A stretch of DNA of 64,000 nucleotides. Source: a virus. Lineage: Duplodnaviria > Heunggongvirae > Uroviricota > Caudoviricetes. Under the pieces are notes generated by a model. The model made no database searches and was not told the origin of the DNA. It was given only the letters and a program-made list of their open reading frames with translations. Made by a program: the position numbers and the translations under genes. The stretch lies in IMG/VR virus record IMGVR_UViG_2675903313_000009. One strand, given 5' to 3'. Below, in pieces: positions 16,705 through 50,486 of the stretch. How positions within the stretch are numbered: position 1 is the first letter of the stretch; the number at the start of each line of letters is the position of its first letter.

Positions 16705-16761
16705 CCTGCTTCTGTATATATAAATAATAAGTAACTTATTAAATATATATACGGAAGCAGG
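16705..16761. repeat. 57-bp AT-rich near-palindrome with GC clamps (copy 1)
   Basis: cctgcttc..gaagcagg arms around AT-rich palindromic core; second copy at 50433. Confidence 0.7.
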
Positions 16762-16796
16762 CTTAGTAAGACATGCCAGACCTAATTAAACACCCC

Positions 16797-16815
16797 AGAA
16801 AACAAGTTGGTTAGC
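16797..16815 (+). promoter_or_regulatory. Early operator motif copy (degenerate)
   Basis: cagaaaacaagttggttagc. Confidence 0.4.
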
Positions 16816-16832
16816 AGATGCAGTAAACAAGT

Positions 16833-16850
16833 TGTTTTAGAGCGCATGGA
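16833..16850 (+). promoter_or_regulatory. Early operator motif copy upstream of terminase small subunit
   Basis: gtaaacaagttgttttag. Confidence 0.45.
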
Positions 16851-16877
16851 CGCGCTCTGTGTGTTTTAGAGGGATCT

Positions 16878-17510
16878 ATGACGGTCGAAAAAGACGAGGT
16901 AAAAACTCGCCTGACACCAGCGGAGTGGGCCGAAGCTGAAGCCAAATGGACGTCAGGCGAATATACACTCTCAAAGCTGGAGGAAGAGTACGGCATTCGT
17001 CGTGAAACACTCTCCAGACATTTCAAAAAGCGAGGATTAGAGAAAGGCGCGGACTCTGTTGGGAAGATGGTTCGTGAGTCTCTTAAATCTGACGCAGAGC
17101 TTCGCGCTAAAGCCCGTGCGGAAAAGATAGAAGAACGTCGTACACGTTATGACGGCTGGGCGTATGCGTTGGGGCAGATGGTGATGGTCGAAGTCACTAC
17201 GGCCAAACGTGAGGGTAAGCCTTTAGGGGCGATTGAGGATTCTCTCAAGAGCTTACAGAGAGCCAGTAATACTCTTGCAAAATGCTTTGAAGTTTCGTCC
17301 AAAGCATTGGGCATGGATCATGCGGAAAATGACGAGGAAGAAATTCCGAACCTGGTATTTGGTGAGCTTACGCCTTCCCAGGTGGCGAAATTACGTCAGG
17401 AAGACGACGAGCCTGAAATCATCGATGACGAATTGCTTGAGACGTTGGAAGAAGAAGCTCTAAGCGAATTTGATGCGACAGATGATGGAAGTGAAGGGGA
17501 GGACGAATAA
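16878..17510 (+). CDS. Putative terminase small subunit
   Basis: HTH-like N-terminus, acidic C-terminus; directly upstream of large terminase. Confidence 0.6.
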   Translation: MTVEKDEVKTRLTPAEWAEAEAKWTSGEYTLSKLEEEYGIRRETLSRHFKKRGLEKGADSVGKMVRESLKSDAELRAKARAEKIEERRTRYDGWAYALGQMVMVEVTTAKREGKPLGAIEDSLKSLQRASNTLAKCFEVSSKALGMDHAENDEEEIPNLVFGELTPSQVAKLRQEDDEPEIIDDELLETLEEEALSEFDATDDGSEGEDE

Positions 17511-18766
17511 TGGCAATCCCGTCCTCGCTCAGTCTTGTGCAACTGCATTCTGGACAGATGAAAGTCTTCCAGTCTCCGCATCGATTTAAAGTTGTTTGTG
17601 CTGGTCGACGCTGGGGAAAATCCCGGTTGTCGATCTCCACTATTATTCGTGCGGCGGCAAAGGAAAAAAAGCAAAGAGTCTGGTATGTCGCTCCTACTTA
17701 CCAGATGGCTCGCCAGATTTTGTGGGACGATCTACAGGAAGTTCTGCCTCGTAAGTGGGTTAGGAAAAAGAACGACACCACGATGACAATCGTGTTGAAG
17801 AACGGTTCGGAGATCGCCCTCAAAGGTGCTGATAAGCCTGACACTCTGCGCGGCGTAGCGTTGCATTTTGTAGTGCTTGATGAATTTCAGGATATGAAGG
17901 CTGACACCTGGTACAAGGTGTTACGACCTACTCTTTCATCGACACGCGGCGGTGCACTGATCATTGGTACGCCAAAAGGCTTCTCGGAATTTCACAAACT
18001 GTGGACTATAGGCCAGAACGTAGAGCTGCAAAGAAAGGGACAGTGGAAGAGCTGGCAGTTTGTAACTGCCGATTCTCCGTTTGTACCTACGGCGGAAATT
18101 GAAGCTGCTAAGAACGATATGGACCCGAAATCGTTCGCTCAGGAGTACCTGGCTAGCTTTGAGAACATGTCCGGGCGCGTTTACTACCCGTTCGATCGTA
18201 ACGTGCATGTAAAACCGCTTCAGTTCAACCCTCGGTTGCCTATATGGGTAGGGCAGGACTTCAACATTGACCCGATGTCTTCCGTAATTTTGCAACCTCA
18301 GCCAAATGGTGAGCTATGGGCAATTGATGAATTGGTGCTCTTTTCCTCTAACACGGCAGAGGTTTGTGATGAGCTTGAGAGACGCTTCTGGCGCTGGAAA
18401 TCACAGATAACGGTATTTCCAGATCCGGCAGGTGCTTATCGCCAACATGCTCGCGGGGAGTCTGACGTCGACATATTCAAAGAGAAGGGATTCTTACGTG
18501 TCGATTATTCGAAAAAGCACCCGCCAATTGCGGATCGTGTTAATGCTGTTAACCGAATGCTGATGACCGCATCTGGAGATATCCGGTTGTATATCGATCC
18601 GAAGTGCAAGCATTTGATTGATTCACTGGAAAAAGTCATCTACAAGCCTGGAACACGAGATATGGATAAGACAGGTGGCATTGAGCATAGTGCAGACGCA
18701 TTGGGCTATCCAGTACATCGTAGGTATCCAGTCAAAAACCGTGTTATTCTTGGTGGTTCTCGATAG
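17510..18766 (+). CDS. Terminase large subunit
   Basis: Walker A-like CAGRRWGKS; position before portal. Confidence 0.8.
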   Translation: MAIPSSLSLVQLHSGQMKVFQSPHRFKVVCAGRRWGKSRLSISTIIRAAAKEKKQRVWYVAPTYQMARQILWDDLQEVLPRKWVRKKNDTTMTIVLKNGSEIALKGADKPDTLRGVALHFVVLDEFQDMKADTWYKVLRPTLSSTRGGALIIGTPKGFSEFHKLWTIGQNVELQRKGQWKSWQFVTADSPFVPTAEIEAAKNDMDPKSFAQEYLASFENMSGRVYYPFDRNVHVKPLQFNPRLPIWVGQDFNIDPMSSVILQPQPNGELWAIDELVLFSSNTAEVCDELERRFWRWKSQITVFPDPAGAYRQHARGESDVDIFKEKGFLRVDYSKKHPPIADRVNAVNRMLMTASGDIRLYIDPKCKHLIDSLEKVIYKPGTRDMDKTGGIEHSADALGYPVHRRYPVKNRVILGGSR

Positions 18767-18784
18767 GTAAGTAATTATCTAAGG
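18762..18784. promoter_or_regulatory. GATAGGTAAGTA motif copy
   Basis: gataggtaagtaattatctaagg before portal gene. Confidence 0.35.
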
Positions 18785-18792
18785 TTATTCAA

Positions 18793-20367
18793 ATGGAATT
18801 GAACGACAAACAAATTAAGGATCTGGTGGCGCGACGCCACCCGGAATACGAAAAGAAAAAAGAACATTGGGACTTCCTCGCCAGCACTTACGCTGGCGGG
18901 CGTGGTTGGTTTACAGACAATATCTTTCGTTACTTTAAAGAGGGAGATCAGGAGTTTAAGGAGCGAGTTGAACGTGCTTATCGCTTCAACCACACTCGTG
19001 AGGTGGTAAACCTCATCAACAAATATCTCTTTAAAGAAGATATTCATAGAAATATCGAAGAGGCACCAGAGCAGATCCGCAATTTCTGGAAACGTGCGAC
19101 TCGCCAGAATGCCTCTATTGACTCATTTATGGCCGCTATTGATTTGCAGTCGTCTATTTACGGTCGCATATGGGTTGTTGTCGATAGCACGATGAGTGGT
19201 GATGTTGAGTCAGTAGCTGACGAGAAAAAGAAAGATGCTCGCGCCTACGCCTACTGGATTTCACCTCAGCAAATGCTGGATGTGGCATGGGACGACGACG
19301 GGAATATGTTGTGGGCGTTAATTGTGGAAGTCGCTCGTGATGACGCAGATCCTTTTACTTCTACAGGTCAGGAATACCAACGTTATCGTCTGTGGACACA
19401 AAACGAGTGGTATCTGCTCCGTGAGGAAGTGAAGAAGGGCGCTGGTGGAGCAGGTCGCCGTCAGGCAAAAGTTATTTTAGAGGATAGCGGTGAGCATAAT
19501 CTCGGCGTAGTTCCTGTGTTTCCTGTTGATTGTATTGGAGAAAGTGAATCACCGTATTTCAGCCCATCGTTGATCGATGATATCGCTTATCTTGATCGTG
19601 CGGTTGCAAACTATCTGTCAAACCTTGATGCCATTATTCAGGATCAGACATTTAGCCAGTTGGCTATACCGGTACAGTCGCTTTTACCTGGTGATGAAAA
19701 CCACACTAAAGTGCTTGAAATGGGCACAAAGCGAGTCTTCACCTACGATTCTGAAGGTGGAAACCAGCCGTTTTATCTGTCACCAGACCCGAAACAAGCT
19801 CAGATGATCATCACTACAATTAAGACGGTGATTAACGAAATCTACCATTCAGTTGGTGTAGCTGGTGAGCGAACGAAGCAGGACAACGCACAGGGAATCG
19901 ATAATTCATCTGGTGCCGCAAAAATGTATGACTTCCAGCGTGTAAATAGCTTGCTTGTCACAAAAGCAGAGCGTCTGGAAAGGGCTGAACGCCAAATCAT
20001 GCTACTGGTTGCGAAATGGATGGGGGTAGATCTGGACGAAGACCACTCTTTAATTGCGTATCCAGAAAGTTTCGATATTCGTGGCCTTACTGATGAATTT
20101 TCTGTTGCCGAGAAACTGTCATTACTTCAGGCACCGGACTCTGTACGTCGTCACCAGATGGAAATGCTTATTGAGAAGATTTTCCCGAACATTACTGAGG
20201 CGATGAAAAAGGAATTTGATAAAGATCTCTTGAATTTTCCTCCAAAAAATGATCTAAATACCCTTGAAAATAAGTCAGTACTTACTTATGATCGTGGTGC
20301 AGCCCAAGAAAGCGGGCAAGATCAACCCCGAGGGAATGGGGACTCATCTACTCAAGAGAACGAGTGA
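18793..20367 (+). CDS. Portal protein
   Basis: 524-aa ORF after terminase; size and gene order. Confidence 0.75.
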   Translation: MELNDKQIKDLVARRHPEYEKKKEHWDFLASTYAGGRGWFTDNIFRYFKEGDQEFKERVERAYRFNHTREVVNLINKYLFKEDIHRNIEEAPEQIRNFWKRATRQNASIDSFMAAIDLQSSIYGRIWVVVDSTMSGDVESVADEKKKDARAYAYWISPQQMLDVAWDDDGNMLWALIVEVARDDADPFTSTGQEYQRYRLWTQNEWYLLREEVKKGAGGAGRRQAKVILEDSGEHNLGVVPVFPVDCIGESESPYFSPSLIDDIAYLDRAVANYLSNLDAIIQDQTFSQLAIPVQSLLPGDENHTKVLEMGTKRVFTYDSEGGNQPFYLSPDPKQAQMIITTIKTVINEIYHSVGVAGERTKQDNAQGIDNSSGAAKMYDFQRVNSLLVTKAERLERAERQIMLLVAKWMGVDLDEDHSLIAYPESFDIRGLTDEFSVAEKLSLLQAPDSVRRHQMEMLIEKIFPNITEAMKKEFDKDLLNFPPKNDLNTLENKSVLTYDRGAAQESGQDQPRGNGDSSTQENE

Positions 20368-20388
20368 TAAGTAACAAAAGGAATTTTT

Positions 20389-21276
20389 ATGAATCTGTGG
20401 CAAATGCTTTTGGCCCGTCGTGGTCTGATGGATGTCGCTGAAGCGCATGAGCGTGGAGGCGCTGGCGGTGTAGCTGCTGATGATGAGCAGAGTACACAAG
20501 ATCCTGACAAACAGGGTGAACAAAAAGAGCAGCCGAAGGGCGATGACGAATACGCTGGCATGACTCAGGAAGAGTTACTGGCCGAACTTCGTAAAACCAA
20601 GAAAGCTGGTGCTGAACTGCTGAAGGAGAACATGAAGCGCAAAGAGAAAGAGCGCACATTGGCCGATCAGCTTGCTCAGTACGGTGAAATCGACCCGGCG
20701 CGTGCTCGCCAGCTTTTAGAAGCTGAACAGGCCGCAGAAAACGCACGTCGTGAGGCGGAGCAAGCTGAACTGGAGCGTCGTGGTGAGTTCGATGCTGTTA
20801 AAAAACAGATGATCGAAGCACACCAGGCAGAGCTGGCACAGCGTGACGAACGTTATGCAGCACTGGAAAGTGAAAACGCATCACTGAAATCTCAATTAGT
20901 CGAGATGACCGTGGGCGCTTCCTTCAGTAACTCTCTCTTCCTACGTGACAAAGTTCTGATGACTCCGGCAAAAGCCCGCGTGATCTACGGTTCTCATTTT
21001 GAAGTGGGTGAAGACGGTAGCGTAGTGGGTTATGACAAACCGGCAGGTCATAAAGAACGAGCTGTTCTGGTTGACGGTGAAGGTAAGCCGTTGCCGTTTG
21101 AATCCGCGATTGAACGCATTGTGCGGGCAGATCCGGAAGCTGACGCATTGATGCGTAGCGAAGCCAAGCAGGGTGTAGGCTCACATTCCAAATCGACCTA
21201 CACAATATCCCGACCGAAGAACAAGTCGACTATGGATAAGTTGGCCTCCGGTCTGGGGAAAATTGGACTTAAGTAA
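20389..21276 (+). CDS. Scaffolding protein
   Basis: Charged, coiled-coil-like (EAEQA/ELERR repeats); between portal and capsid. Confidence 0.6.
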   Translation: MNLWQMLLARRGLMDVAEAHERGGAGGVAADDEQSTQDPDKQGEQKEQPKGDDEYAGMTQEELLAELRKTKKAGAELLKENMKRKEKERTLADQLAQYGEIDPARARQLLEAEQAAENARREAEQAELERRGEFDAVKKQMIEAHQAELAQRDERYAALESENASLKSQLVEMTVGASFSNSLFLRDKVLMTPAKARVIYGSHFEVGEDGSVVGYDKPAGHKERAVLVDGEGKPLPFESAIERIVRADPEADALMRSEAKQGVGSHSKSTYTISRPKNKSTMDKLASGLGKIGLK

Positions 21277-21301
21277 CATCTAAATCAAAGGGAATTGATA
21301 G

Positions 21302-22177
21302 ATGCCATTACTGCGTGAAGAAGCTGAAAAGCTGTCTAACAACGAACTCGAACAGGGTGTGATCGAAACTATCATTGATCGCGATGACCTGTTTGCCATC
21401 CTGCCTTTTATGAAAATTAATTCAAAGGCATATCTGTACAATCGTGAAAAAACGCTGAGTGAAGCTACCTTCATCGACGTTAACGACACCATCACTGAAG
21501 GTGCAGCAACCTTCGAAGAATGCGTTGCGAAACTGCGTATTCTGGCTGGTGACGTAGACGTTGATAAATTCCTGGCGACCACTATGGCCGACACCAATAA
21601 CCAGTTGGCTATTCAGGTTCGTCAGAAAGTTAAAGGTCTGGCTCGTGCGTTCCGCCGCAACCTGATTTTGGGTGACTCCAGCTCCAACAACAAAGCGTTT
21701 GACGGCATTCCACGCCTGATGCACGCAGATCAGAAGATCGATATCGCCGGTGCATCTATGACTTTCTCTATGTTCGACGAACTGGTCGATGCGGTGAAAG
21801 ATCTTGGTGCTGACTGCATCATGATGCGTTCAGAGCACCTGCGTGCTTATCGTGCGCTGCTGCGTACAGTAAACGTAGGTCCGTCTGAAATCATGATGGA
21901 GAACTTTGGTCGTCCGATGCTGTGTCATAACGGCGTTCCGTTCATCATCAACGACTTCATCCCGACCGATGCTGGTAAAGCAAGCATCTACTGCCTGCAT
22001 CTGTCAGAAGAGAACGGCGTTACTGGTCTGTATGGCGGCGACAACGCAGGTATCGTTGTTGAAAACATTGGTACTGTACAGAACAAAGACGCAGTACGTA
22101 CCCGTGTGAAGTGGTACTGCTCTCTGGCGAATAAGCACGATAAGGCTATCGCTGCACTGACCAATGTAAAAATTTAA
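21302..22177 (+). CDS. Major capsid protein
   Basis: 291-aa ORF after scaffold, followed by strong terminator. Confidence 0.75.
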   Translation: MPLLREEAEKLSNNELEQGVIETIIDRDDLFAILPFMKINSKAYLYNREKTLSEATFIDVNDTITEGAATFEECVAKLRILAGDVDVDKFLATTMADTNNQLAIQVRQKVKGLARAFRRNLILGDSSSNNKAFDGIPRLMHADQKIDIAGASMTFSMFDELVDAVKDLGADCIMMRSEHLRAYRALLRTVNVGPSEIMMENFGRPMLCHNGVPFIINDFIPTDAGKASIYCLHLSEENGVTGLYGGDNAGIVVENIGTVQNKDAVRTRVKWYCSLANKHDKAIAALTNVKI

Positions 22178-22188
22178 TCAGAGTAGTA

Positions 22189-22202
22189 GATAAGTAGTTA
22201 TC
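22189..22202. promoter_or_regulatory. Palindromic GATAAGTA..TTATC motif copy
   Basis: gataagtagttatc. Confidence 0.35.
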
Positions 22203-22211
22203 TATGTTAAA

Positions 22212-22238
22212 GGGTGGGCTATACGCCCACCCTTTTTG
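22212..22238 (+). terminator. Rho-independent terminator after capsid gene
   Basis: Stem gggtgggc/gcccaccc then TTTTT. Confidence 0.85.
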
Positions 22239-22250
22239 TAGGAGCGAGAA

Positions 22251-23171
22251 ATGCCAGAACAAAAGATGAAGATTACGGAAGAGGCATTTTCGGATTTTAC
22301 GGGGCATATGTGCCGCGCCGGATTTACCAATTCTATCTCCGATGAACCTTTAACCGAGCGGCAACAAAGTCAGCTATCTGCTTGTTTGCAGGCGGTTCCC
22401 CTCTCCCAATCCGTAAACATAACCCCGGCTTCACCGTCAGTTTTGGTTGGGAAAACTGTTCAACTTAGTGCAGGTATTAGTATGGGTAAGAGTGCCAGTT
22501 CATTCACCTGGAAGTCAGCAAATGACCAAATTGCAACCGTTAACGGCACTGGATTAGTAACTGGCGTAGCACCAGGCAAAGTAAAAATTACTGCAACTGA
22601 TCAGGAAACCCAGCTTTCCGCTTCAGTGGAAGTCACCGTAAATCCGGTAGCCGTTCAATCCGTAACGGTAACGCCAGCATCAACGTCTGTTGAGAAAGGG
22701 AAATCAGTCAGTCTGAAAGCGAATGTTCAGCCGTCAAATGCGACGAATAAGGCTGTTACCTGGTCTTCCAAAAATGAAGATAAGGCAACGGTAGACCAGA
22801 GCGGGAACGTTACTGGTGTAGAAGTTGGCACTGCGACGATTGAGATCGTTTCCCAAGATGGTAGCAAAAAGGCAACTGCAACGGTGGAAGTAACTGCGCC
22901 TGTTGTGGCTGTTACAGGCGTCGAAATCGACCCAAATAGCACAACCGTTGAGGCAAACAAAACTGTTCAGCTGACCGCAAATGTCGAGCCGGCAGGAGCC
23001 ACAAATAAAACCGTTACTTGGGAATCTAAAAATACCGAGTTTGCAACGGTTGACAGCGAAACCGGTGTTGTAACTGGTGTTGCGGCTGGTACTGCCACAA
23101 TCGAGGTTACTACCCAAGATGGTAGCCACAAAGCGACAGCGACCGTAGAAGTCACTGCTGCACAGGAATAA
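22251..23171 (+). CDS. Ig-like (Big_2-type) domain protein, probable head decoration or fibre
   Basis: Three tandem ~80-aa Ig-like repeats (VTVTPASTSV..TATVEVTA). Confidence 0.7.
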   Translation: MPEQKMKITEEAFSDFTGHMCRAGFTNSISDEPLTERQQSQLSACLQAVPLSQSVNITPASPSVLVGKTVQLSAGISMGKSASSFTWKSANDQIATVNGTGLVTGVAPGKVKITATDQETQLSASVEVTVNPVAVQSVTVTPASTSVEKGKSVSLKANVQPSNATNKAVTWSSKNEDKATVDQSGNVTGVEVGTATIEIVSQDGSKKATATVEVTAPVVAVTGVEIDPNSTTVEANKTVQLTANVEPAGATNKTVTWESKNTEFATVDSETGVVTGVAAGTATIEVTTQDGSHKATATVEVTAAQE

Positions 23172-23179
23172 TCAATATT

Positions 23180-23197
23180 GGGCGGCGAAAGCCGCCC
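23180..23197 (+). terminator. Hairpin, possible terminator
   Basis: Stem gggcggc/gccgccc with GAAA loop; no T tract. Confidence 0.4.
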
Positions 23198-23215
23198 ATG
23201 TAGAGAGAATGCGTT

Positions 23216-23650
23216 ATGAAACCAGCAAAAATTGTTTTATTAGAACCGCAATTTTCCGGTTATTCGGGAATGTTGTGCGGCGTTCAGTTCGAGAACGGGT
23301 TGTCCGTAGCGGAGTTGCCTTTTATCGATCAGCAAAGGATTTGTGCCTCAATGCGAGCATCAACAGTCGAGGGCAAAAATGTTTCTCCGTCTGCCGCATA
23401 CAGTGATCGTGGCGAGTTGACCGCAGACCTGATTACCGAGCCAGCAGCACCTGACATTGTGCCAATGAAACGTGGGACACCAGATGAACCGGCCAAACAG
23501 ATCCAGACTTTCACACGAGAAGAGTTGGAGTCAATTGCAGACAATGAAGGCATTGCCGGTCTACGTGTGATTGGTAATCAGGTTGGTGTCAAAGCGAAAG
23601 GAATTGTCGAGATGATTGAAGGCATCCTGAAAGCACAAGGCGGTGAGTAA
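23216..23650 (+). CDS. Hypothetical virion morphogenesis protein
   Basis: ORF in head-tail connector region. Confidence 0.4.
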   Translation: MKPAKIVLLEPQFSGYSGMLCGVQFENGLSVAELPFIDQQRICASMRASTVEGKNVSPSAAYSDRGELTADLITEPAAPDIVPMKRGTPDEPAKQIQTFTREELESIADNEGIAGLRVIGNQVGVKAKGIVEMIEGILKAQGGE

Positions 23651-39235: not shown

Positions 39236-42200
39236 ATGTGGTACAGGGAAGGTACTATCACATTTACACAGGGTAGCAATACTCTGGTTGGGGCAGGGAC
39301 AGCCTGGAATGTAACAGCTAATGGTGTGTTGCCGGGGATGATCGTCATTGGCCCCGACAATAAGCTGTATGAGATCAAGCGCGTAATAAGCGATACGAAT
39401 ATTGTTCTCTCAGAACCTTATACCGGCGAAACTCAGTCTGAGGTTCCGTGCCGAATCATTACGACCTATGAAGGCGACTTAACACAGTTTAGCGCGCGCT
39501 TTACTGCGCTAATGTCGCGTATGTCGGCTGATTCCAAGTCCATACGCAGTTGGTTGACTGCGCTGGATGAGGTGACAATCGAGCGTGAAGACGGTACAGA
39601 AGTGACCGTTAAGCCGCTAATGCAGATCGTCAACGAGCACAACGAAAACGTTGAGTGGTATAAAAATAACACTGACGCGATTGATGCTGCTGGCGACAAA
39701 GCTCGTGAGGCGGCGGCCAGTGCTGCCGCAGCAGCAAAAAGCGCCAATGTCGCTGGAGAAAAAGCCTCTCAAGCGTCTCAAAGTGCATCCGCTGCGGCAT
39801 CCTCACAAAGTGCCGCAAGTGCGAGTGCAACTGCTGCGAAAAAATCTGAAACGAATGCTGCAGCGTCACAAAAATCTGCAGCCACTTCTGCATCCACCGC
39901 GACCACGAAGGCGTCAGAAGCTGCCACCTCAGCCCGGGATGCGGCGGCCTCAAAAGAGGCAGCGAAATCATCAGAAACGAGCGCTGCCTCGAGCGCCGGC
40001 AGTGCAGCTTCCTCGGCAACGGCGGCAGGAAATTCCGCGAAGGCCGCAAAAACGTCTGAGACGAATGCGGATAACAGCGCACAGGCGGCAGCAGACTCAC
40101 AAACTGCATCGGCAAACTCCGCGACAGCAGCCAAAAAATCAGAAACCAACGCGAAAAATAGTGAGGCAGCAGCAAAGGTCAGCGAAACCAACGCTAAAGC
40201 GTCAGAGAACAAGGCGAAAGAATATCTCGACAAGGTCGGGGGACTCGTCAGCCCGATGACGCAATACGATTGGCCCGTTGTTACTGGTAATGAGTCTTTT
40301 TACATAAAGATCGCGAAACTTTCCGATCCCGGAAGCAACAATTGCCATGTAACGCTAATGGTTACTAACGGCGGTGACTACGGCTCCCCTTACGGAAACA
40401 TTGACTTTATCGAGATCTCGGCGCGCGGTCTGCCTTCTTCGCTTACTGCTGATAATGTATCTCGTTACCTGAGTATACGCCGTTTAGGGCCAACCGGGCT
40501 AATCAATAGCATGCAAATGCGTTACGGCCTGGTTAAAGGTGATGGCTTTATTGAGGTTTGGGCCTTCCAGCGTGCATTTATCAACGGCGCAAAGGTTGCG
40601 GTACTGGCGCAGACGGCACGCACGGAATTATACATTCCAGACGGATTTGTTAAGCAAACCGCCGCGCCTTCTGGATATGTTGAAGGCAACGTTGTAAGGA
40701 TTTACGACCAGGTAAACAAGCCGTCGAAATCGGATGTTGGACTTGGCAACGTAACGAACGATGCGCAGGTAAAAAAAACCGGCGATACAATGACCGGTGG
40801 GCTTACTTTTGCAAACGACTCAATCCTTGCCTGGATTCGGAATACTGACTGGGCGAAGATTGGATTTAAAAATGATGCCGATGGTGACACTGATTCATAC
40901 ATGTGGTTTGAAACAGGCGACAACGGCAATGAATATTTCAAATGGAGAAGCCGCCAGAGCACCACAACAAAAGACCTGATGAATCTTAAATGGGATGCTT
41001 TGTCTGTTCTTGTTAAAGCCCTTTTCAGCAGTGAAGTAAAAATATCGACAGTCAATGCACTGAGGATTTTTAATTCATCCTTTGGTGCTATTTTTCGCCG
41101 TTCTGAAGAAAGCCTGTATATCATCCCTACACGAGAAAATGAGGGTGAAAATGGAGATATTGGGCCATTAAGGCCATTCAACATCAACTTAAGAACAGGA
41201 GTTGTGTCTGTTGGTCATGGACTAAATGTTACTGGTGGCGTTAATGGTAGTTTGAACGGTAATGCTTCAACAGCTACGAAGTTGCAGACTGCGCGTACTA
41301 TTAATGGGGTGTCGTTTGACGGTTCTAAAAACATTGAGCTAACTCCAAGGTCTATAGGAACGATCAACTCAGCAACAATGTCTTTTAGTGGTGGTGCCGG
41401 ATGGTTCAAGCTGGCAACTGTAACCATGCCACAGGCCAGTTCCGTGGTTTACATAAGCCTGATTGGTGGTGCAGGGTATAACGTTGGCGCCCCGCAGCAA
41501 GCAGGCATCTCTGAGCTGGTTCTGCGTGCCGGAAATGGAAATCCAAAGGGTATTACTGGTGCATTATGGCGACGGACATCGGTTGGATTTACTAATTTTG
41601 CATGGGTGAATACATCCGGTGATACCTATGATGTTTATGTTGAAATAGGTAATTACGCCACAGGTGTTAATATTCAGTGGGATTATACCAGTAACGCCAG
41701 CGTAACGATTCATACATCACCAACTTATACAGCGAATAAACCAACTGGTCTTACTGATGGAACGGTATATGTCATTTACAGTTCGCACATTAAACCGACC
41801 GCCACGGATGTCGGCGCATTACCAATAACCGGAGGAAATCTCAACGGCGGTTTAACGGCTACTGGTGAGATCATTTCAAAATCGGCGAATGGTCTGCGCA
41901 TTGCCTATGGCAACTATGGATTCTTTATCCGTAATGACGGCGGCAGCACATATTTCATGCTAACAGCATCAGGAGATACATTAGGTTCATGGAACGGTTT
42001 GCGACCTATTACAATTAATAATACCAGCGGTGCTGTATCAATTGGTAATGGACTAAATGTGACTGGTGGCGTAAATGGTAGTTTGAACGGTAATGCTTCA
42101 ACAGCTACGAAGTTGCAAACAGCGAGAAACATCAATGGTGTTAAGTTTGATGGTTCAGGCGATATCAATATTAATACATTGGTATCTCGTGGCCGAGTTA

Positions 42201-43150: not shown

Positions 43151-43163
43151 ACAACTTCAATCG

Positions 43164-43186
43164 GGGCTGGAGCTAAACCAGCCCCT
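43164..43186 (+). terminator. Hairpin after tail fibre gene
   Basis: Stem ggggctgg/ccagcccc. Confidence 0.5.
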
Positions 43187-43210
43187 GCTTAAAAGTATAA
43201 GGATATATTT

Positions 43211-43465: not shown

Positions 43466-44073
43466 TGTACGGAAGCAAGATATATCGATCTGACGGGAAG
43501 GTCTGGATGTCTCCTTCTTTGTCTCCTATCGTTTTTCAGAGAAAGCAGGTTGTTTCTTTGTCCGGCGGAACAGAGTTTAACACCAAAATATCTCCAGATC
43601 GTTCACCGATTATTTTTGTTGCCTATTCGAAAGCTGTTTCATTAATAGCCAACAGAATAGTGCGTAACAACCAGGTGATTTACAGTTTCGGAGGTCGGGG
43701 TAGCGACTCTAGTGCCACGATATACGTATTTTCGAAAGGTATAGCCAAAAAAGAAACTTGGGGCATGAGTTTTTTCAATGCACAAGGGGGGGAAATCTAT
43801 AATACGGCAAATATCCCACTTTCATTTACCTTTCTTAATAATACGGAGTGGAACAGCTCTGGAGGGCATGTTTTTGATTACCCTCCAGCGATAATCCCAA
43901 CATATGCGAATGTGTTCGCTGTTCCAGTACCGGGCGGAGCCATGACAATGGTTTATGGATATGCGGCGTATGGAAATACTGTTAGCTCGATATTCGTAAA
44001 CCAACTTAATGGCGGCCATAGTTTTAGCGTAAATGGCAGAGTACCGGTAATAAATAGAAATCTGTATAACTGA
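43465..44073 (+). CDS. Hypothetical protein (possible fibre assembly or adhesin)
   Basis: 202-aa ORF, start overlaps upstream stop. Confidence 0.45.
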   Translation: MYGSKIYRSDGKVWMSPSLSPIVFQRKQVVSLSGGTEFNTKISPDRSPIIFVAYSKAVSLIANRIVRNNQVIYSFGGRGSDSSATIYVFSKGIAKKETWGMSFFNAQGGEIYNTANIPLSFTFLNNTEWNSSGGHVFDYPPAIIPTYANVFAVPVPGGAMTMVYGYAAYGNTVSSIFVNQLNGGHSFSVNGRVPVINRNLYN

Positions 44074-44080
44074 TGAGTAA

Positions 44081-44314
44081 ATGATGAAAAGATTATTTCT
44101 AACAATAGCTGTTGTTCTCTCTCTTACTGGCTGCCAGAAATTGCCGACACCTATATGTTATGGTGAAGCTATCATTGGTGGACAGGAGACAGTCATACCC
44201 ATATATGCTGTTAAAAAAGTGAACGACTATACCTTATACAAAGCGGGTAGCATCTATAACTGGCGATGGGTTGGAGTAGGTGCTTTCTCATCAATCGGTT
44301 GCAATGCTGAATGA
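44081..44314 (+). CDS. Small lipoprotein
   Basis: Signal peptide with lipobox LTGC (MMKRLFLTIAVVLSLTGCQ). Confidence 0.6.
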   Translation: MMKRLFLTIAVVLSLTGCQKLPTPICYGEAIIGGQETVIPIYAVKKVNDYTLYKAGSIYNWRWVGVGAFSSIGCNAE

Positions 44315-44333
44315 TAGGTAAGTACACACCTAC
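44313..44333. promoter_or_regulatory. GATAGGTAAGTA motif copy
   Basis: gataggtaagtacacacctac. Confidence 0.35.
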
Positions 44334-44395
44334 AACAAAAGGGTGAAATGTGATATAAATCCGCCATCCCGATTTGACTTTTCATGGAGGAAAAC

Positions 44396-44719
44396 ATGTC
44401 GAACGAGATGGCGGGCGTTACAACAGAGCAAGTTGAGCGTATTGCCGCGATCGTTGCTCGGGAGGTTGTTGGCAAATTAGGTAAAGAGCTACGTGAAGAA
44501 ATTGGCCAGGAGGTCAATGATCAGCTGAAAACCTACTTTGGTGATATGACCCCGGCGCAACATAGTATTCAACACTCCAATCTGGACAAACTCCTTAACC
44601 GGTTAGATTCCATCTCAAGTGGGTTCTTTGGCGGCATTGTTTCTAAAATAACGTCGTTCATTATTACCGCACTGCTTTTGGGGTTAGCCGCGTATGGCGT
44701 AAAAAGTGGACTGCAATAA
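44396..44719 (+). CDS. Putative holin or lysis regulator
   Basis: Single C-terminal transmembrane segment; directly upstream of endolysin-position gene. Confidence 0.4.
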   Translation: MSNEMAGVTTEQVERIAAIVAREVVGKLGKELREEIGQEVNDQLKTYFGDMTPAQHSIQHSNLDKLLNRLDSISSGFFGGIVSKITSFIITALLLGLAAYGVKSGLQ

Positions 44720-44732
44720 CAGGAGATCAAGG

Positions 44733-45425
44733 ATGAAGACTCCGAGAGGCATTCGTAATAATAACCCCGGTAATCTTGATAAAGGATCACCGTGGCAAGG
44801 TCTGGTTGCGAATCCAGACGAACCGCGCTTTTGCACGTTTAAAGACCCTGTTTGGGGGATTCGTGCGCTGGCGGTGACTCTAATTACCTACCACGATAAA
44901 CGTCGCGCAAAAGACGGCTCAAGTATCGATACCATTCGTGAAGTTATTGAACGCTGGGCACCGCCGAATGAAAACAATACTGACGCCTACATTAATGAGG
45001 TGTCTAAAGCCGTTGGTGTAACCGCAGACATGATCATCGATCTGCATGATTACGACATCCTTCGACCTTTGGTTGAGGCAATCATTCGCCACGAGAATGG
45101 CCGAGGCCCGCTAAAAACGCTGAACACCTGGTATGCGGCAGAAGTTATTGAGGAAGGTCTGCGTCGAGCTGGCGTTGTTAAGCCGGTGAAAACCGTGAAG
45201 GCTGTTCCTGTAACTAAAGAAACCGCAGGCGCAACTGTTACAGCAGGTATTGGTCTGGCGCAGCTGGCCGATGTTATGCCGCAGGTTTCCGCTGCTATGG
45301 ATAAAGCACAAGGTCATATCTCTAGCGGGGATACAGTACGCATCATCTTCGGTATTGCCACTATTGTTGTGGCAGGATTCATTGCCTGGTCGCAGGTAAG
45401 AAAACACCAGAAAGGGATGGTCTAA
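44733..45425 (+). CDS. Putative endolysin (by position), C-terminal hydrophobic segment
   Basis: AGGAG RBS; lies between holin-like and spanin genes; enzymatic family not assignable. Confidence 0.45.
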   Translation: MKTPRGIRNNNPGNLDKGSPWQGLVANPDEPRFCTFKDPVWGIRALAVTLITYHDKRRAKDGSSIDTIREVIERWAPPNENNTDAYINEVSKAVGVTADMIIDLHDYDILRPLVEAIIRHENGRGPLKTLNTWYAAEVIEEGLRRAGVVKPVKTVKAVPVTKETAGATVTAGIGLAQLADVMPQVSAAMDKAQGHISSGDTVRIIFGIATIVVAGFIAWSQVRKHQKGMV

Positions 45426-45426
45426 T

Positions 45427-45678
45427 ATGCTAGGCAGCCTGATGACAAAGCTAAAAGTTGCTTTGATTACGCTGGCTGCCGTTCTTTTCGTTCTGGTCGG
45501 CGCTTACACGATGGGCGGAAATGCGGCGCGACGAGCAATGGAAGAGAAGGCAAAACAGGAAGACAGGAAACGACTTCAAAGCACAGTGGATGTCAAAAAT
45601 GAAACGGTTAATGAAGTGCGGCAAAAAGATGCCTCTGGTGTTCATCGCGAGCTGTTTGATAAATGGGTGCGTGATTAA
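45427..45678 (+). CDS. Inner-membrane spanin (Rz-like)
   Basis: N-terminal TM helix then charged helical region. Confidence 0.6.
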   Translation: MLGSLMTKLKVALITLAAVLFVLVGAYTMGGNAARRAMEEKAKQEDRKRLQSTVDVKNETVNEVRQKDASGVHRELFDKWVRD

Positions 45679-45826
45679 GACGCAGGCTCCAGGCGTGCTA
45701 TTCTGCGATGCTGCAAATCCTATCTATGTGAGTAGAGAGGATTTTATGACTGAGGAAACGGAGCGACAGTTGCTTATCCACAATACGATAGGTGAAAGGC
45801 TGTGTGAGTGGGGGCACCTGAACTGA
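45599..45826 (+). CDS. Outer-membrane lipoprotein spanin (Rz1-like), overlapping Rz in +1 frame
   Basis: Lipoprotein signal ending LINGC; overlaps Rz 3' half and extends beyond it. Confidence 0.5.
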   Translation: MKRLMKCGKKMPLVFIASCLINGCVIKTQAPGVLFCDAANPIYVSREDFMTEETERQLLIHNTIGERLCEWGHLN

Positions 45827-46050
45827 GTCGATGATTGATGAGTGGTCTCAGTTTACCTTTTATCCTAAAGATGGCATCTTCACTCATATACACGCCTGTT
45901 CACTCAAGCTCATGTTGAATCATTTAGTAATTTGATGTAGATTTATTAGGCATCCACGTAAGTGGGCACATACAGGCTACGCATCCTCGTAGCCTTCAAC
46001 CCCGAGAGGGGTGCCGCAATGACACTTGTGTTAACGGCTAAGGTGGATAT

Positions 46051-46470
46051 ATGCTAAATTATCATGACAATACGCGTTCTATGCAGACGATCCGCACCAA
46101 TACTGCGGTCATCGACAGCTTTCCTATGCGTATTCACAACAGTGAAGACGCAGTAGAAGTGCGACGTATGTTGTGCCGTGAATCAGCTAACCGCCAGCAC
46201 TTCATCGTCACTTTTAAGAGCGATGTGGCGCGTGCCGAAAAGATCTCTAATTCTACGTCACTGGTTAAACCGTTGGCCGAGGTTGTCGCTAACGGTAAAC
46301 GAACCTCTTTTGTTTTAGATGTTGCTGAACAATATCCTGACTTGAAGTGTTTAGATCGTGATATTTCTTCACGAATCAAACAAGTTGTAGAGTCTTTTAT
46401 GAAGAAATTCTGTAAAATCGATGATATGGAACCATCAACGGCACAGAATACTTCATGGCACCATCTCTAA
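46051..46470 (+). CDS. Hypothetical protein
   Basis: 139-aa ORF. Confidence 0.45.
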   Translation: MLNYHDNTRSMQTIRTNTAVIDSFPMRIHNSEDAVEVRRMLCRESANRQHFIVTFKSDVARAEKISNSTSLVKPLAEVVANGKRTSFVLDVAEQYPDLKCLDRDISSRIKQVVESFMKKFCKIDDMEPSTAQNTSWHHL

Positions 46471-47228
46471 TTGGTCAGGCGAACAGATTAATCCCTGAAA
46501 TAGAAGACTACAGCAAGGTCTTGTCTGAAATGCCGAGAGCGACGAGAATTATCGCTCTCGGTGAGTTCTATTTTATCTCCCGAGGTTTCGATCTAATTCG
46601 ATTTACCGAATACGAGCTTGTTGATTCGGCCTATGAACGCTGTATTGTTGGCGAGTGTCTTGAGTCATGTGATCCTGATTACCAAGAGCAGGAAGTTAAG
46701 CGACTCAAACGTGCTGGTTACACACCTCTTGAGATAGGAGCAGAAATTGAATCCTACAAGTTGCATGTGGGGCAGCCAGTCCAAACAGTCTTCCGCGTGG
46801 CCTACTGCGAGTTTCCAATCAAGGATAAATCTGGAGTAAAAGTCAGCGCCAAGCAGATTAGAGGGGTTTTTACTCATGCTGATTATATGGGATTAGGCAT
46901 CGCAAGTTTTGCTTACCTTTATCTCGTAGATAAGTATCAGTACTTGGTTTGCGATACGTTACAGACGGTAAAAGGCGCAACTCTTTGGGCTGTGAGTATG
47001 CGCAAACATGGACTGGTCGAAATTTACGATACGAAGAACGAAAATTTTATAGAGGAATTGGGTGAGGATGCCTGTGGCGTAAGTGGTTTTATTCCGTGGG
47101 ATATCGGTAAGTCTGACGGAGGCCAGATGCGAAGACGTGAAGAGTGGGGGACTAATAAAATCAATCTCACCCCAGGTGCTTGTACTCATATAGTGAACAT
47201 TCTGACTAAACGATCTATGAATCAATAA
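46455..47228 (+). CDS. Hypothetical protein with possible GNAT-like motif
   Basis: HADYMGLGIAS weakly resembles acetyltransferase motif A; overlaps upstream gene. Confidence 0.45.
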   Translation: MAPSLIGQANRLIPEIEDYSKVLSEMPRATRIIALGEFYFISRGFDLIRFTEYELVDSAYERCIVGECLESCDPDYQEQEVKRLKRAGYTPLEIGAEIESYKLHVGQPVQTVFRVAYCEFPIKDKSGVKVSAKQIRGVFTHADYMGLGIASFAYLYLVDKYQYLVCDTLQTVKGATLWAVSMRKHGLVEIYDTKNENFIEELGEDACGVSGFIPWDIGKSDGGQMRRREEWGTNKINLTPGACTHIVNILTKRSMNQ

Positions 47229-47250
47229 ACCCGCTACGGCGGGTTTTTTG
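47229..47250 (+). terminator. Rho-independent terminator
   Basis: Stem acccgc/gcgggt then T6. Confidence 0.85.
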
Positions 47251-47325
47251 TTATTAAGCCCCCCCTATGTACCTATCATTAAACCTTTACACCGCAGCCG
47301 TAGGCATTTAGGCTATATCACATAT

Positions 47326-47348
47326 AAGAAAACAAGTTGTTTCAGACG
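47326..47348 (+). promoter_or_regulatory. Early operator motif copy upstream of parA-like gene
   Basis: taagaaaacaagttgtttcagacg. Confidence 0.5.
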
Positions 47349-47377
47349 ATAATTATATACGCAAAGGGAACTCTCCA

Positions 47378-48046
47378 ATGACCAAGATCTTTGTGGTTGG
47401 CGGCACAAAGGGCGGGCCTGGCAAATCCACCGTTGCCCAGCAAATTGCCGTTTGCCTGAAAGTCAAAAAGAAGAAGAAGGTTTATATTACCGATATAGAT
47501 ATTCAGCGCACGACAACGAGCTGGTGTGAAGACCGTCGACAGAACGAAGACCTTGAGCTGATTCCTTTTGCATACGTTCAGGATGACATCATTAAGCACC
47601 TAAAATCGCTTCAGGGTAGAGCTGAGTTTGTAGTGGTAGATGCTGGTGGCTTCGACTCCGAAATTCAGCGACAAGCGATGCTGATGGCTGACGTTATCAT
47701 TATCCCGCTGCGTCCTAAGCGTCGTGATTTGAAATCTTTACGTGACATCGATCCTATTATCGACAATGTTCGCAATGTAAACGATAAAGTGAAGGTCCGC
47801 GCGGTCATGAACCAGTGCCCGGCTTTGCCATCACAAGTGTCTCGCATTCTGGCGGCTAAAGAGATTGTTGAGACGTTTGGCATCGAGTCTGCGCCAGTCA
47901 ATCTATATAACCGCAACGTCTATGATGATGCGGAAGAGTCTGGTCGTTCTATCTTTGAAATGACCGGTAGCGAGCGCGACAAAAAGGCGGAAGCCGAGTT
48001 TGAAGAATTTGTAGATTATCTGTTGAGTCTGGAGGAAGAAGAATAA
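47378..48046 (+). CDS. parA: ParA/MinD-family partition ATPase
   Basis: Deviant Walker A GGTKGGPGKST; 222 aa. Confidence 0.85.
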   Translation: MTKIFVVGGTKGGPGKSTVAQQIAVCLKVKKKKKVYITDIDIQRTTTSWCEDRRQNEDLELIPFAYVQDDIIKHLKSLQGRAEFVVVDAGGFDSEIQRQAMLMADVIIIPLRPKRRDLKSLRDIDPIIDNVRNVNDKVKVRAVMNQCPALPSQVSRILAAKEIVETFGIESAPVNLYNRNVYDDAEESGRSIFEMTGSERDKKAEAEFEEFVDYLLSLEEEE

Positions 48047-48405
48047 TGTCCATGAAAATGGGTGACCTAGCAAAGCGCAAAGAGCCTGATGCACCGGCTA
48101 AGAACACAACTCCTTTGCGCCAACCAGTCAGACCACAGGGACGCCCGACTCGTGGCAAAGAGAAAATTAAAAGCCGCACAATGTCACTGGAGGACGAATA
48201 CTTCGAACTGCTGGAGATGATGAAGTTCATCCCTCGCTTCGAGAAGTTCACTCGTTCTGACGTGATTCGTGCTGCTATTTTCCATCTTGCGGAGAAGACA
48301 CCGCAGGAAATCGAGGACATCGTGAAACTTAACGAGGCGATCACAGCTGCCGATGTCACGATGCGTACCGATGAAATCAAACGCGAGTTGATGAAGAAAG
48401 GTTAA
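48046..48405 (+). CDS. Small partition partner (ParG/ParB-like centromere-binding candidate)
   Basis: 119-aa basic protein coupled to parA (ATGTCC overlapping stop). Confidence 0.5.
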   Translation: MSMKMGDLAKRKEPDAPAKNTTPLRQPVRPQGRPTRGKEKIKSRTMSLEDEYFELLEMMKFIPRFEKFTRSDVIRAAIFHLAEKTPQEIEDIVKLNEAITAADVTMRTDEIKRELMKKG

Positions 48406-48412
48406 TTTTATT

Positions 48413-48437
48413 GAGGTGCTGCTTGGCACCTCTTTCT
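48413..48437 (+). terminator. Terminator after partition operon
   Basis: Stem gaggtgc/gcacctc then TTTCT. Confidence 0.65.
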
Positions 48438-48449
48438 ATAGGTTCCCTA

Positions 48450-49169
48450 ATGCTCTACAAATATATTGGAAGTGAAGATTCGCAAAAAGTGTTACGTAAC
48501 CTCAAACGGTTTGTAGAGGACGGCACTATCTCTGCTAGCGCACCTTCTTCATTCAACGACCCATCAGAGTTCAAAGTTTCGATAACGATGGGAGGTACAG
48601 AAGTGGAGCACCGGAAACACTTTGAAGACAATGGATGTAAGGATTTTTCCTTTGAAGACTGGGATGCTGTAGCTCCTGAAGCTGCAAAATCGTTGGCTGT
48701 GGATTTGCGGAAAGAATCATTAGGGGCTTTTGGTGTGGTGTGCTTGTCACCAAACGAAGATAACATCTTGATGTGGTCACATTACTCAGTGTCGCATAAA
48801 GGTTTCTGCATAGGCTTTGATGATGATTTTGTTACCTCTATTGAGGGGTATCACAGCTTTGATAATGTGAAATATATACCTTCTGTTCCCGTGTTCGATG
48901 AAGTTACAGATGAGTTTAAGGTACTTTTTGATAAGCTCTTTTTCTACAAGCACGAATGCTGGAAATATGAGGAAGAACAAAGGGTTATTACTAAAAAAAT
49001 AGGCGCTCAGGCATTTGATAAGAAATATATTAGAGAGATCATTCTTGGACATAACGTTTCTCCTGAAGTAGAAGAATATGCCCGGACACAGCTAGACACG
49101 AGCATCGAGGTTTACAAAATGAGTACACCTGATGATGGTTATCTTCTTGTCAAAGAAAAGCTGAAGTAG
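48450..49169 (+). CDS. DUF2971-like protein
   Basis: N-terminal LYKYIGSED and FNDPSEF, later MWSHY; recalled as DUF2971 hallmarks, not verified. Confidence 0.5.
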   Translation: MLYKYIGSEDSQKVLRNLKRFVEDGTISASAPSSFNDPSEFKVSITMGGTEVEHRKHFEDNGCKDFSFEDWDAVAPEAAKSLAVDLRKESLGAFGVVCLSPNEDNILMWSHYSVSHKGFCIGFDDDFVTSIEGYHSFDNVKYIPSVPVFDEVTDEFKVLFDKLFFYKHECWKYEEEQRVITKKIGAQAFDKKYIREIILGHNVSPEVEEYARTQLDTSIEVYKMSTPDDGYLLVKEKLK

Positions 49170-49235
49170 CTCCAGACTTTCCTCAAATGATTATGTTGGG
49201 CGCTTTTCTTATTGAACTGGTTAGTGAGGCTAATA

Positions 49236-50408
49236 ATGGATTTGTTCTCAACCAAAATAGCAAAAAACAAGCTGCACGAATCTTTTAAACAGATTTATCA
49301 AGATAATACATATGCTCCAGTAAGAGAAGTGATACAGTCGTGGGGGCGTGGGTTACTGGAGCGTAGCGGTGAGCAGACTAAATTCGTTAAAGAGTTTCAG
49401 ACAACCTTCAATTCCGCCTTATGGGAATTGTATCTGAACGAAATGTTTATTCGTCTCGATTATTCTGTCGACTACACAAAAGACAGTCCCGATTTCTGTG
49501 TTACTACACCGTCAGGCTACCAGTTTAACGTCGAAGCTGTGATATCAGATCGGCCACATAATCCACCTGCAGGTGTTCTTTTTAGCGAATCAAAATTCAA
49601 ACATCAATCAACGCTAAAATTAATCGGAAAAATCAAAGACAAACATGATCTTTTTACAGGAGTTAATGGCAAAAAATTCCCGTACTCTACGATGTCTCAT
49701 GTAGTTAATAAGCCGTTTGTTCTGGCGCTTGCACCCTTTGACTCCGATTTATCATTGTCTCAAAATAACACAATCATCAATCGAGTGTTGTTTGGCATTG
49801 AGGAACCTACCACCAGAAATTTGGTGACTGGCAGCCAAACTAAAGTTACCTCAATCAAAAAGAATGAAGACGTTGAAATTCCATTAGGTATATTTACTAA
49901 CGACTCATATAAAGAAATAAGTGCGGTTATTTTCTCCACCACCGGCACTTTTGGAAAAGCCGTGGTTCAAAGCGGTATCGGTAGATATGTAAGGTCAACA
50001 CGATATCGAGCCATTGATGTGAATGATTTCATCGCCAATGAAGGGATGAAAAACGAGGGAAAGCACACACAAAGGATAGGACCTGATCATTTCATCACTA
50101 CATATCGGCATTTTTTAAATAACGAAGTCACTGGTGCGGATATTGTAGTTTGTCATTCCACTGCTCATGAAGAGACGCACTTTGACGGCCTTCATATTTA
50201 CTACAATCCTTTTGCGACAGTGCCACTGGACAGAAATATTTTCTTCCCCCCAGAGATAACTCATAATTTTTACGATATGGAAAAAGAACAGTCTGTTCAG
50301 AATCATCCTGATGGAGCGCTGGTATCTAGACAGGTTTTTGAACCAACTAGAGCACATTTTAGGTATATCATGAAACATTGGTTTCCAGGCTTTCTAAAAG
50401 ATGTTTAA
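49236..50408 (+). CDS. Hypothetical 390-aa protein, partner of DUF2971-like gene
   Basis: GTGAGG RBS; no recognisable motifs; lower GC than neighbours. Confidence 0.55.
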   Translation: MDLFSTKIAKNKLHESFKQIYQDNTYAPVREVIQSWGRGLLERSGEQTKFVKEFQTTFNSALWELYLNEMFIRLDYSVDYTKDSPDFCVTTPSGYQFNVEAVISDRPHNPPAGVLFSESKFKHQSTLKLIGKIKDKHDLFTGVNGKKFPYSTMSHVVNKPFVLALAPFDSDLSLSQNNTIINRVLFGIEEPTTRNLVTGSQTKVTSIKKNEDVEIPLGIFTNDSYKEISAVIFSTTGTFGKAVVQSGIGRYVRSTRYRAIDVNDFIANEGMKNEGKHTQRIGPDHFITTYRHFLNNEVTGADIVVCHSTAHEETHFDGLHIYYNPFATVPLDRNIFFPPEITHNFYDMEKEQSVQNHPDGALVSRQVFEPTRAHFRYIMKHWFPGFLKDV

Positions 50409-50432
50409 GCATCCTGCTGGTTGAATTTGGAA

Positions 50433-50486
50433 CCTGCTTCTGTATATAAATACTAAGTTACTTATTATTATTTATACGGAAGCAGG
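50433..50486. repeat. 54-bp AT-rich near-palindrome with GC clamps (copy 2)
   Basis: About 85% identical to 16705..16761; followed by TCTTTTT. Confidence 0.7.

Follow-up and report, generated by a model that had tools for sequence, protein, structure and literature searches.

The window analysed here is a stretch of 64,000 nucleotides (nt) from the virus record IMGVR_UViG_2675903313_000009, which represents an Escherichia coli SSU5-like phage-plasmid related to Cyrano/pLF82, PhiR41_1, SSU5 and pMT1. Its DNA is 98-99% identical to that of E. coli SSU5-like phage-plasmids (CMS-2020a, PhiR41_1 and Cyrano/pLF82) and ~80% identical to that of Salmonella phage SSU5 and Klebsiella phage-plasmids; over the part of the terS region that the Cyrano record covers in one piece, the identity to Cyrano is 99.6%. 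The window contains two similar palindromes, termed sites B and C, each located between two groups of genes (Table 1). Site B is 117 nt upstream of an open reading frame (ORF) of 210 residues at 16878, annotated as terminase small subunit or DNA-binding protein and followed by TerL. Site C comes after the ORF 49212-50408, itself downstream of a DUF2971 ORF (48411-49169). These ORF positions agree with an earlier note on this DNA, which had put one copy upstream of terS and the other downstream of a DUF2971-like cassette.

Table 1. Palindromes, flanking signals and motif sites; coordinates refer to the window except in the last row.
Feature	Position	Strand	Remarks
Palindrome copy 1 (site B), CCTGCTTCTGTATATATAAATAATAAGTAACTTATTAAATATATATACGGAAGCAGG	16705-16761 (57 nt)	+	GC-clamped, AT-rich imperfect hairpin; separates the ParB-like/ABC-ATPase operon from the terS-led late operon
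Palindrome copy 2 (site C), CCTGCTTCTGTATATAAATACTAAGTTACTTATTATTATTTATACGGAAGCAGG	50433-50486 (54 nt)	+	Hairpin; separates the defence cassette from the 249-aa/DnaB-like helicase/primase operon
Stop codon of the 88-aa ORF (16414-16680)	16678-16680	+	24 nt before palindrome B
Stop codon of the PD-T7-5-like ORF (49212-50408)	50406-50408	+	24 nt before palindrome C
T-run TCTTTTTCT	50487-50495	+	Directly after the GC-rich stem base of site C (U-tract)
Extended composite hairpin around site B	16683-16782 (~100 nt)	+	RNA fold -51.1 kcal/mol, z -10.4
Outer arms of the site B hairpin, GGTCTGG and CCAGACC	16683-16689; 16776-16782	+	Additional spacer pairing of CTTATT/AATAAG type
Motif CCCAGAC	50506-50512	+	Conserved; corresponds to the 3' outer arm at sites A and B; 5' partner weak at site C
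Classical terminator TAGAGCGCATGGACGCGCTCTG + TGTGTTTTAG	16838-16869	+	GC-rich hairpin and T-run, 9 nt before the terS start
Variable cassette	48411-50408	+	DUF2971/PDC-S31-like ORF and PD-T7-5-like ORF (Pfam, PADLOC); right border at palindrome C
Sites of GAAAACAAnTTGTTT	1586-1653, 3252, 4447, 4931, 5835, 6599, 9215, 16798, 16823, 47328, 51356		Palindromic motif
Sites of ATAAGTAAGTnnTTACTTAT	13470, 20270, 25761, 32257, 39173, 50574, 55842, 59358, 62216		20-nt palindromic motif
Non-folding copies of the Klebsiella sp. PO552 lineage	L508 (CP037443.1) ~3505-3450 and 3262-3206; L134 2883-2937; L542	minus (L508)	Outside the window

Both palindromes lie where the earlier note had placed them. Global alignment of the two copies revealed 50 identical columns out of 57 in direct orientation (88%, close to the previous estimate of about 85%) and 49 out of 57 in inverted orientation. 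Both have the arms CCTGCTTCTGTATA / TATACGGAAGCAGG, as described before, and between these a core that is ~90% A+T. Each copy is largely self-complementary (50/57 columns at site B and 46/55 at site C), and folds into a hairpin with a GC-rich stem base formed by the 8-bp clamp CCUGCUUC/GAAGCAGG. Compared to dinucleotide shuffles, the RNA folds reach -33 kcal/mol (z -9.1) at site B and -25 kcal/mol (z -6.0) at site C, and the DNA folds -20 kcal/mol (z -10) and -14 kcal/mol (z -8), respectively. The arm motif CCTGCTTCNGTATA has exact matches in the window only at the four arms of the two palindromes; at no more than two mismatches, it has five matches against 1.1 expected.

The earlier note had suggested a check for further copies, and a third one exists outside the window in complete relatives. 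The complete genome of PhiR41_1 (107,998 bp) carries copies at 13435 (site A), 45582 (site B) and 75115 (site C), of which the latter two correspond to copies 1 and 2 of the window, and site A follows an adenine-methylase gene. A full scan of a second complete plasmid, NZ_OZ369437.1, also gave exactly three copies; as this is one of the records with 4-5 BLAST places, the idea of more than three copies per plasmid was dropped. A strict palindrome pattern has 120 matches in IMG/VR, all of them at sites A, B and C. The palindrome is present in 260 of 5,426 complete E. coli genomes, those that have it show a median of three places, and plasmids account for 771 of the 773 places; the two chromosomal places belong to one genome, and the one examined is an SSU5-like fragment beside ISEcp1. 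As for the site B region, 832 plasmid records contain it, among them Y. pestis pMT1-type and Salmonella plasmids; the hosts are Klebsiella, Escherichia, Enterobacter, Yersinia, Salmonella, Citrobacter and others. Y. pestis and Kluyvera genomes have the region too.

The same three positions are retained across Escherichia, Salmonella, Klebsiella, Enterobacter, Yersinia, Citrobacter and Kluyvera, with flanks that are 75-80% identical. Nearly all genes of SSU5-like elements are on one strand, and the three copies divide the circle into three arcs: the C-to-A arc for replication, recombination and nucleotide metabolism, the A-to-B arc with accessory and regulatory genes, and the B-to-C arc for virion, lysis, partition and defence. 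Rfam has no family that matches the palindromes, giving only sub-threshold matches to generic miRNA-precursor hairpins, and no description of them was found in the searchable literature. The three-copy family is thus undescribed there, yet it is of a familiar kind rather than a new kind of element.

We consider it probable that the three paralogous GC-clamped, AT-rich hairpins act in the + strand transcript as intrinsic terminators or insulators at module borders. This reading is strong for site C, and we infer it for sites A and B. Similar to intrinsic terminators, including the bidirectional type with A-tract, hairpin and T-tract, sites A and C have a GC-rich stem base followed by a T-run, and the copies are placed at the ends of operons, ~24 nt past the stop codons; the 24-nt spacing seen at both window copies also occurs in SSU5, in Cyrano and at site A of PhiR41. 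The T-run after site C is TCTTTTTCT or TCTTTTAAA, with a median of five T in 9 nt over 78 loci, and that after site A is CTGTTTTGT or CTTTTTA, with a median of six. In relatives whose methylase is 69-72% identical, site A retains just a right-arm remnant, followed by an unrelated GC-rich hairpin and TTTTGT, that is, a canonical terminator. Because a canonical terminator replaces the palindrome at site A in these distant relatives, the comparison argues that termination would be what these positions need. Distant copies at site B are degenerate or half-deleted, yet they keep long T-runs.

Expression data from a relative point in the same direction. In Cyrano lysogens, the + strand genes CYRAN_28-30, namely parA, its partner and a cassette gene, are at log2 8.6-10.4 in four of five conditions, and CYRAN_31, the following + strand gene located 193 nt downstream, is at log2 2.6-4.2, with a floor of 2.32 (RNA-seq, PMC9928086 S1 Table). 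RNA thus falls several-hundred-fold between the same-strand genes that flank the palindrome, a large drop of the kind known from intrinsic terminators. The stop codon of CYRAN_30 is 24 nt before a 53-nt palindrome, which is followed by TCTTTTAAAG (including TCTTTT), and the gap between CYRAN_30 and CYRAN_31 contains no terminator-like or strong hairpin besides this palindrome. These per-gene values in a relative show a very efficient expression block at the place where copy C lies. Among the roles that the earlier note had listed, the terminator is therefore favoured, by the stop codons, the T-runs at two of three sites, the terminator replacement and the Cyrano RNA-seq.

To describe conservation, loci were fetched via neighbouring proteins and not via the palindrome, with the downstream gene as anchor for site C and terS for site B (IMG/VR loci, n=74). 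The palindrome is present at 67/77 loci for site A, 74/74 for site B and 78/78 for site C, 219/229 in total. Over 29 distinct arm combinations, 94.8% of the arm cells are paired, and six of the 14 arm pairs have changed on both sides, which was equalled by none of 500 shuffles. Compensated arm variants include CCTGCTTTCG / CGAAAGCAGG, CTTT/AAAG, CCTGTTTC / GAAACAGG (also at site C of Klebsiella pJN2-26), CCTGCGTCTG / CAGACGCAGG and CTTGCTCCCATA / TATGGGAGCAAG, the last with three double changes in a relative (L499) whose methylase is 63% identical. Moreover, the cores exceed shuffles of the same composition in self-complementarity (median z -2.4 to -3.6). Because of the compensatory arm changes and this excess of core self-complementarity, the hairpin potential is judged to be under selection. 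An anchor scan with TTACTGGTGATGTRA was too unspecific to be used, and a scan with ATATACAGAGCYAGG gave mostly chance matches.

However, several observations weigh against terminators as the explanation of all three copies. Site B has no U-run; it is followed by CTTAGTAAG in the window (16762) and by TTCTGAAT or CTCTCAAAC elsewhere, with a median of three T in 9 nt. The stems of ~23-25 bp, with small internal loops and an AT-rich extension (core nearly 90% AT), are far longer than terminators need, the usual stem being 5-14 bp with a loop of 3-8 nt, and three sequence-related copies per genome are likewise unlike ordinary intrinsic terminators. A simple terminator scan calls neither window copy. 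At site B of common Klebsiella lineages, CCTGCGTC stands against GAAGCAGG or GAAAGCAGG, giving uncompensated mismatches, one or two of them in abundant lineages, and some site A variants have uncompensated C.A pairs. G.U wobble asymmetry, as a test for a + strand RNA, gave a mixed picture: the mismatches are mostly T.G at site C, several are C.A at site A, and G.A and A.A occur at site B. PhiR41-type elements have a minus-strand gene to the left of site C, so this copy is not preceded by a stop codon. The Cyrano RNA-seq consists of per-gene values from a relative, and the flanks of sites A and B are silent on both sides in lysogens, so that the table bears on site C only. In addition, a terminator would not require as much shared sequence as is seen among the three copies and their flanks (TCTGG...CCAGA).

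The Klebsiella sp. PO552 lineage is a further case. Here the left arm has been lost identically in all copies of the unit, which no longer folds; the unit persists at site B, and at site C two inverted copies stand ~185 nt from each other, with a T-run after each. These at least three similar non-folding copies are not explained by terminator function alone.

The conserved unit exceeds the palindrome itself, most clearly at site B, where complementary flanks enclose it in an extended composite hairpin. The copies are flanked by GGTCTGGGAG upstream and CTCCCAGACC downstream, and the arrangement of TCTGG...CCAGA plus hairpin occurs at sites A, B and C of PhiR41_1, whereas a scan of the window finds it only at site B. 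The flank-flank duplex at site B has a median of -22 kcal/mol (z -2.7), with z < -2 in 78% of unique variants and some covariation in the outer helix. By contrast, it is weak to moderate at site A (median z -1.2) and on average not significant at site C (z -0.35), where the left flank is variable. Downstream of site B by ~80 nt, the classical terminator before terS is conserved in SSU5, Y. pestis, Kluyvera and Klebsiella relatives. With this terminator in place, site B therefore need not terminate efficiently alone, and the promoter-proximal position before terS suggests that the late operon may be controlled by antitermination.

Such a composite hairpin raises the question of whether the palindromes are mainly elements of RNA processing or stability, that is, RNase III substrates, 3'-end protection or sib-type retroregulation, with termination secondary and the full ~100-nt stem formed only in read-through transcripts. 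In lambda tI/sib, sequence beyond the terminator completes a longer stem, and only read-through transcripts form it. The palindromes may be compared with this system in having a terminator-type hairpin inside a longer stem that continues, with its 3' half, past the T-run, and with the T7 inter-cistronic RNase III hairpins in that several similar hairpins would stand between co-oriented phage transcription units. The stems of 23-25 bp and the outer helix together provide at least 40 paired positions, enough for RNase III; site B, which lacks a U-run, pairs most strongly in the extended form, and the terminator before terS would fit lytic read-through of the antitermination type. Nevertheless, the likeness to lambda and T7 is proposed for the geometry only, the outer-flank pairing is strong and significant only at site B, and the drop across site C occurs in lysogens without known antitermination. 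Altogether, we regard a primary role in RNA processing as rather unlikely.

The sequence conservation beyond pairing and the PO552 copies bear on a function at the DNA level, in which the AT-rich cores would melt or form cruciforms, and a phage or host protein would bind or cut them. They could then be lytic origins, places of entry for recombination-dependent replication, or targets that a dimeric DNA-binding protein recognises. A GC-clamped core of ~90% AT is ideal for cruciform extrusion, the sequence is conserved among copies and lineages beyond the pairing, and the PO552 lineage keeps at least three similar copies of a derivative that does not fold. Site C adjoins the helicase-primase operon, the element encodes its own replisome together with RecA-, RuvC- and exonuclease-like proteins, and the loop ATAAGTAACTTAT resembles a separate family of 20-nt palindromic motifs in the genome. 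Against this stand the compensatory arm changes, which alter the sequence that a protein would read, the fixed position and orientation of all copies relative to gene ends and T-runs, and the canonical terminator that takes the place of site A in distant relatives. Pfam and PHROGs yielded no candidate binding protein. The cumulative GC skew of PhiR41_1, a weak test, rises monotonically to an extreme at repA without inflection at 13.4, 45.6 or 75.1 kb. We therefore consider such DNA-level cis sites unlikely.

More specifically, the palindromes could be multiple lytic origins, or break or entry points for recombination-dependent replication, with termination as a by-product; the candidate proteins served would be the DnaB-like helicase, the primase, Pol III alpha and the RecA-, RuvC- and exonuclease-like proteins. 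The non-folding PO552 copies and the conservation beyond pairing are what this version would explain best, but we hold it to be quite improbable. Similar to the oriS/oriL-type origins of herpes simplex virus (HSV) and telRL of N15, the family comprises palindromes of 45-60 bp in several copies, with an AT-rich centre and conserved outer boxes. Unlike HSV oriS/oriL and N15 telRL, it has no linked initiator or protelomerase and no skew signal, the records are circular, and its copies keep to gene ends and T-runs. A protelomerase target of telRL type was rejected on the circular records of PhiR41_1 and the plasmids, in which only a 367-aa tyrosine integrase and no protelomerase is annotated.

The position of copy B just upstream of terS, and the fact that the records of SSU5 (JQ965645.1) and Cyrano (OV696614.1) were opened inside palindrome B, would be consistent with a pac or cos site of the terminase encoded there, as the earlier note had also considered. 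We judge this extremely unlikely. Two more near-identical copies lie 30-46 kb away on a circle of ~108 kb and, as cos sites, would create sub-genomic packaging units. The junction of the SSU5 record restores the full 55-nt palindrome with nothing missing or duplicated, and draft contigs (L285, L289, L448 and L484) also end at or beside sites A and C. Moreover, TerL belongs to the Terminase_6N type, which headful packagers usually have. The breaks of records and contigs at the palindromes are likely assembly breaks at a three-copy hairpin repeat and not physical genome ends.

Compared to one another, the copies also carry traces of a shared history. Rare arm variants recur at more than one site, and in PhiR41-type elements copies B and C are identical 55-mers, whereas those of the window differ at seven columns. 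Because arm variants are shared across sites and B equals C in these elements, the pattern indicates that sequence exchange probably occurs between palindrome copies, in a form of concerted evolution. REP/BIME, ERIC and other repeated extragenic palindromes are likewise imperfect, lie behind genes in transcribed intergenic DNA and evolve in concert; the present family differs from these in having three copies only, at fixed orthologous sites in one phage-plasmid family, with no sign of mobility. The same features raise the possibility of functionless relics of a duplicated or mobile palindromic element that stay alike only by gene conversion, in line with the mismatches tolerated in several lineages. 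However, the retention of the three positions across seven genera with such divergent flanks, the compensatory changes and the finding of no extra or variable insertion sites make this very unlikely.

Three related identities were also tried and set aside. A spread beyond SSU5-like elements and a mobile repeat resembling miniature inverted-repeat transposable elements or REP both fail, as all matches are at the three orthologous sites, and the chromosomal match examined and the match on an IncF plasmid are SSU5-like fragments near insertion sequences (ISEcp1 and IS3, respectively). An integron attC site (RYYYAAC ... GTTRRRY) does not fit the arms CCTGCTTC/GAAGCAGG, and no integron integrase is annotated near site C. 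As to the fragments, SSU5-like DNA that includes a palindrome copy, at 948490-960546 of the E. coli chromosome NZ_CP103694.1, adjoins ISEcp1 (with dfrA51 and thyA), and that on the IncF plasmid pCUVM3.1 adjoins IS3; insertion sequences evidently moved pieces of the phage-plasmid in these cases.

Recombination between copies, another role named in the earlier note, was not seen: the gene order is conserved, and a 61-kb Enterobacter plasmid with only site C has no deletion junction at the palindrome. Sites A and B show equal flank identity to the reference on both sides, and are thus not mosaic breakpoints. At site C, the homology of the window to all its relatives starts exactly at the palindrome, and the adjoining 40 nt on the left side form 13 unrelated families, compared to one family at site B. 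In relatives, the slot between parAB and palindrome C has at least 13 unrelated contents, some of them on the opposite strand. From these comparisons, copy C forms the right border of a hypervariable hotspot of anti-phage defence and accessory genes, and the window genes in it are defence candidates, among them the PD-T7-5-like ORF (PADLOC E = 2e-139). Of the other neighbours, the 88-aa protein encoded upstream of site B obtained no function from Pfam or PHROGs and only weak CARF-like matches from PADLOC, and for the 249-aa protein downstream of site C Pfam and PHROGs gave no function either.

Two smaller palindromic motifs recur in the window. The motif GAAAACAAnTTGTTT has 22 strand matches at no more than two mismatches against 1.5 expected. 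Its sites precede early-region genes and the DnaB-like gene, one stands 30 nt ahead of parA, and two lie in the interval from palindrome B to terS; from this placement it looks like an operator or promoter element of a global regulator. The 20-nt motif ATAAGTAAGTnnTTACTTAT has 18 strand matches at no more than three mismatches against 0.03 expected. Seven of its nine sites are 0-100 nt upstream of + strand gene starts, the exceptions being 59358 and 62216. The motif may represent a promoter or else a start-associated sequence of the type known from cluster K mycobacteriophages. The loop ATAAGTAACTTAT of the large palindromes is a three-mismatch relative of it. In addition, a canonical intrinsic terminator, AAAGGGTGGGCTATACGCCCACCCTTTTTGT, directly follows the major capsid gene at 22209-22240, the usual device for over-producing capsid mRNA. 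Internal repeats of ~250-260 nt are found in the gene of an Ig-like domain protein (22251-23171), and a 128-nt repeat with a spacing of 831 nt lies inside the 1304-aa tail-fibre gene (41198-42156).

Taking termination as the main role, we propose that the GC-rich stem base CCUGCUUC/GAAGCAGG with the U-run at sites A and C would stop transcription from the upstream module, and that the hairpin at site C would keep the plasmid-state expression of par and defence genes out of the lytic replication genes. Site B may be a hairpin for pausing, processing or 3'-end stabilisation, in support of the GC-rich terminator before terS. The likeness of the three copies would reflect common descent together with sequence exchange between them. 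What we infer from the data above is that transcripts actually end at these hairpins, what site B does, and whether RNase III takes part.

SSU5-like phage-plasmids are common in clinical Enterobacterales. If the hairpins should act on DNA, they would offer a lead to the lytic origin or origins of the group. The palindromes explain why assemblies and GenBank records break at these places, and palindrome C fixes the right border of the defence-gene hotspot, occupied here by the PD-T7-5-like and DUF2971/PDC-S31-like genes. Knowledge of the three insulators would aid operon annotation and the engineering of SSU5-like elements. Because almost all genes point the same way, terminators at the module borders would be what lets the plasmid-state programme of partition, defence and toxin-antitoxin genes run beside silent lytic modules.

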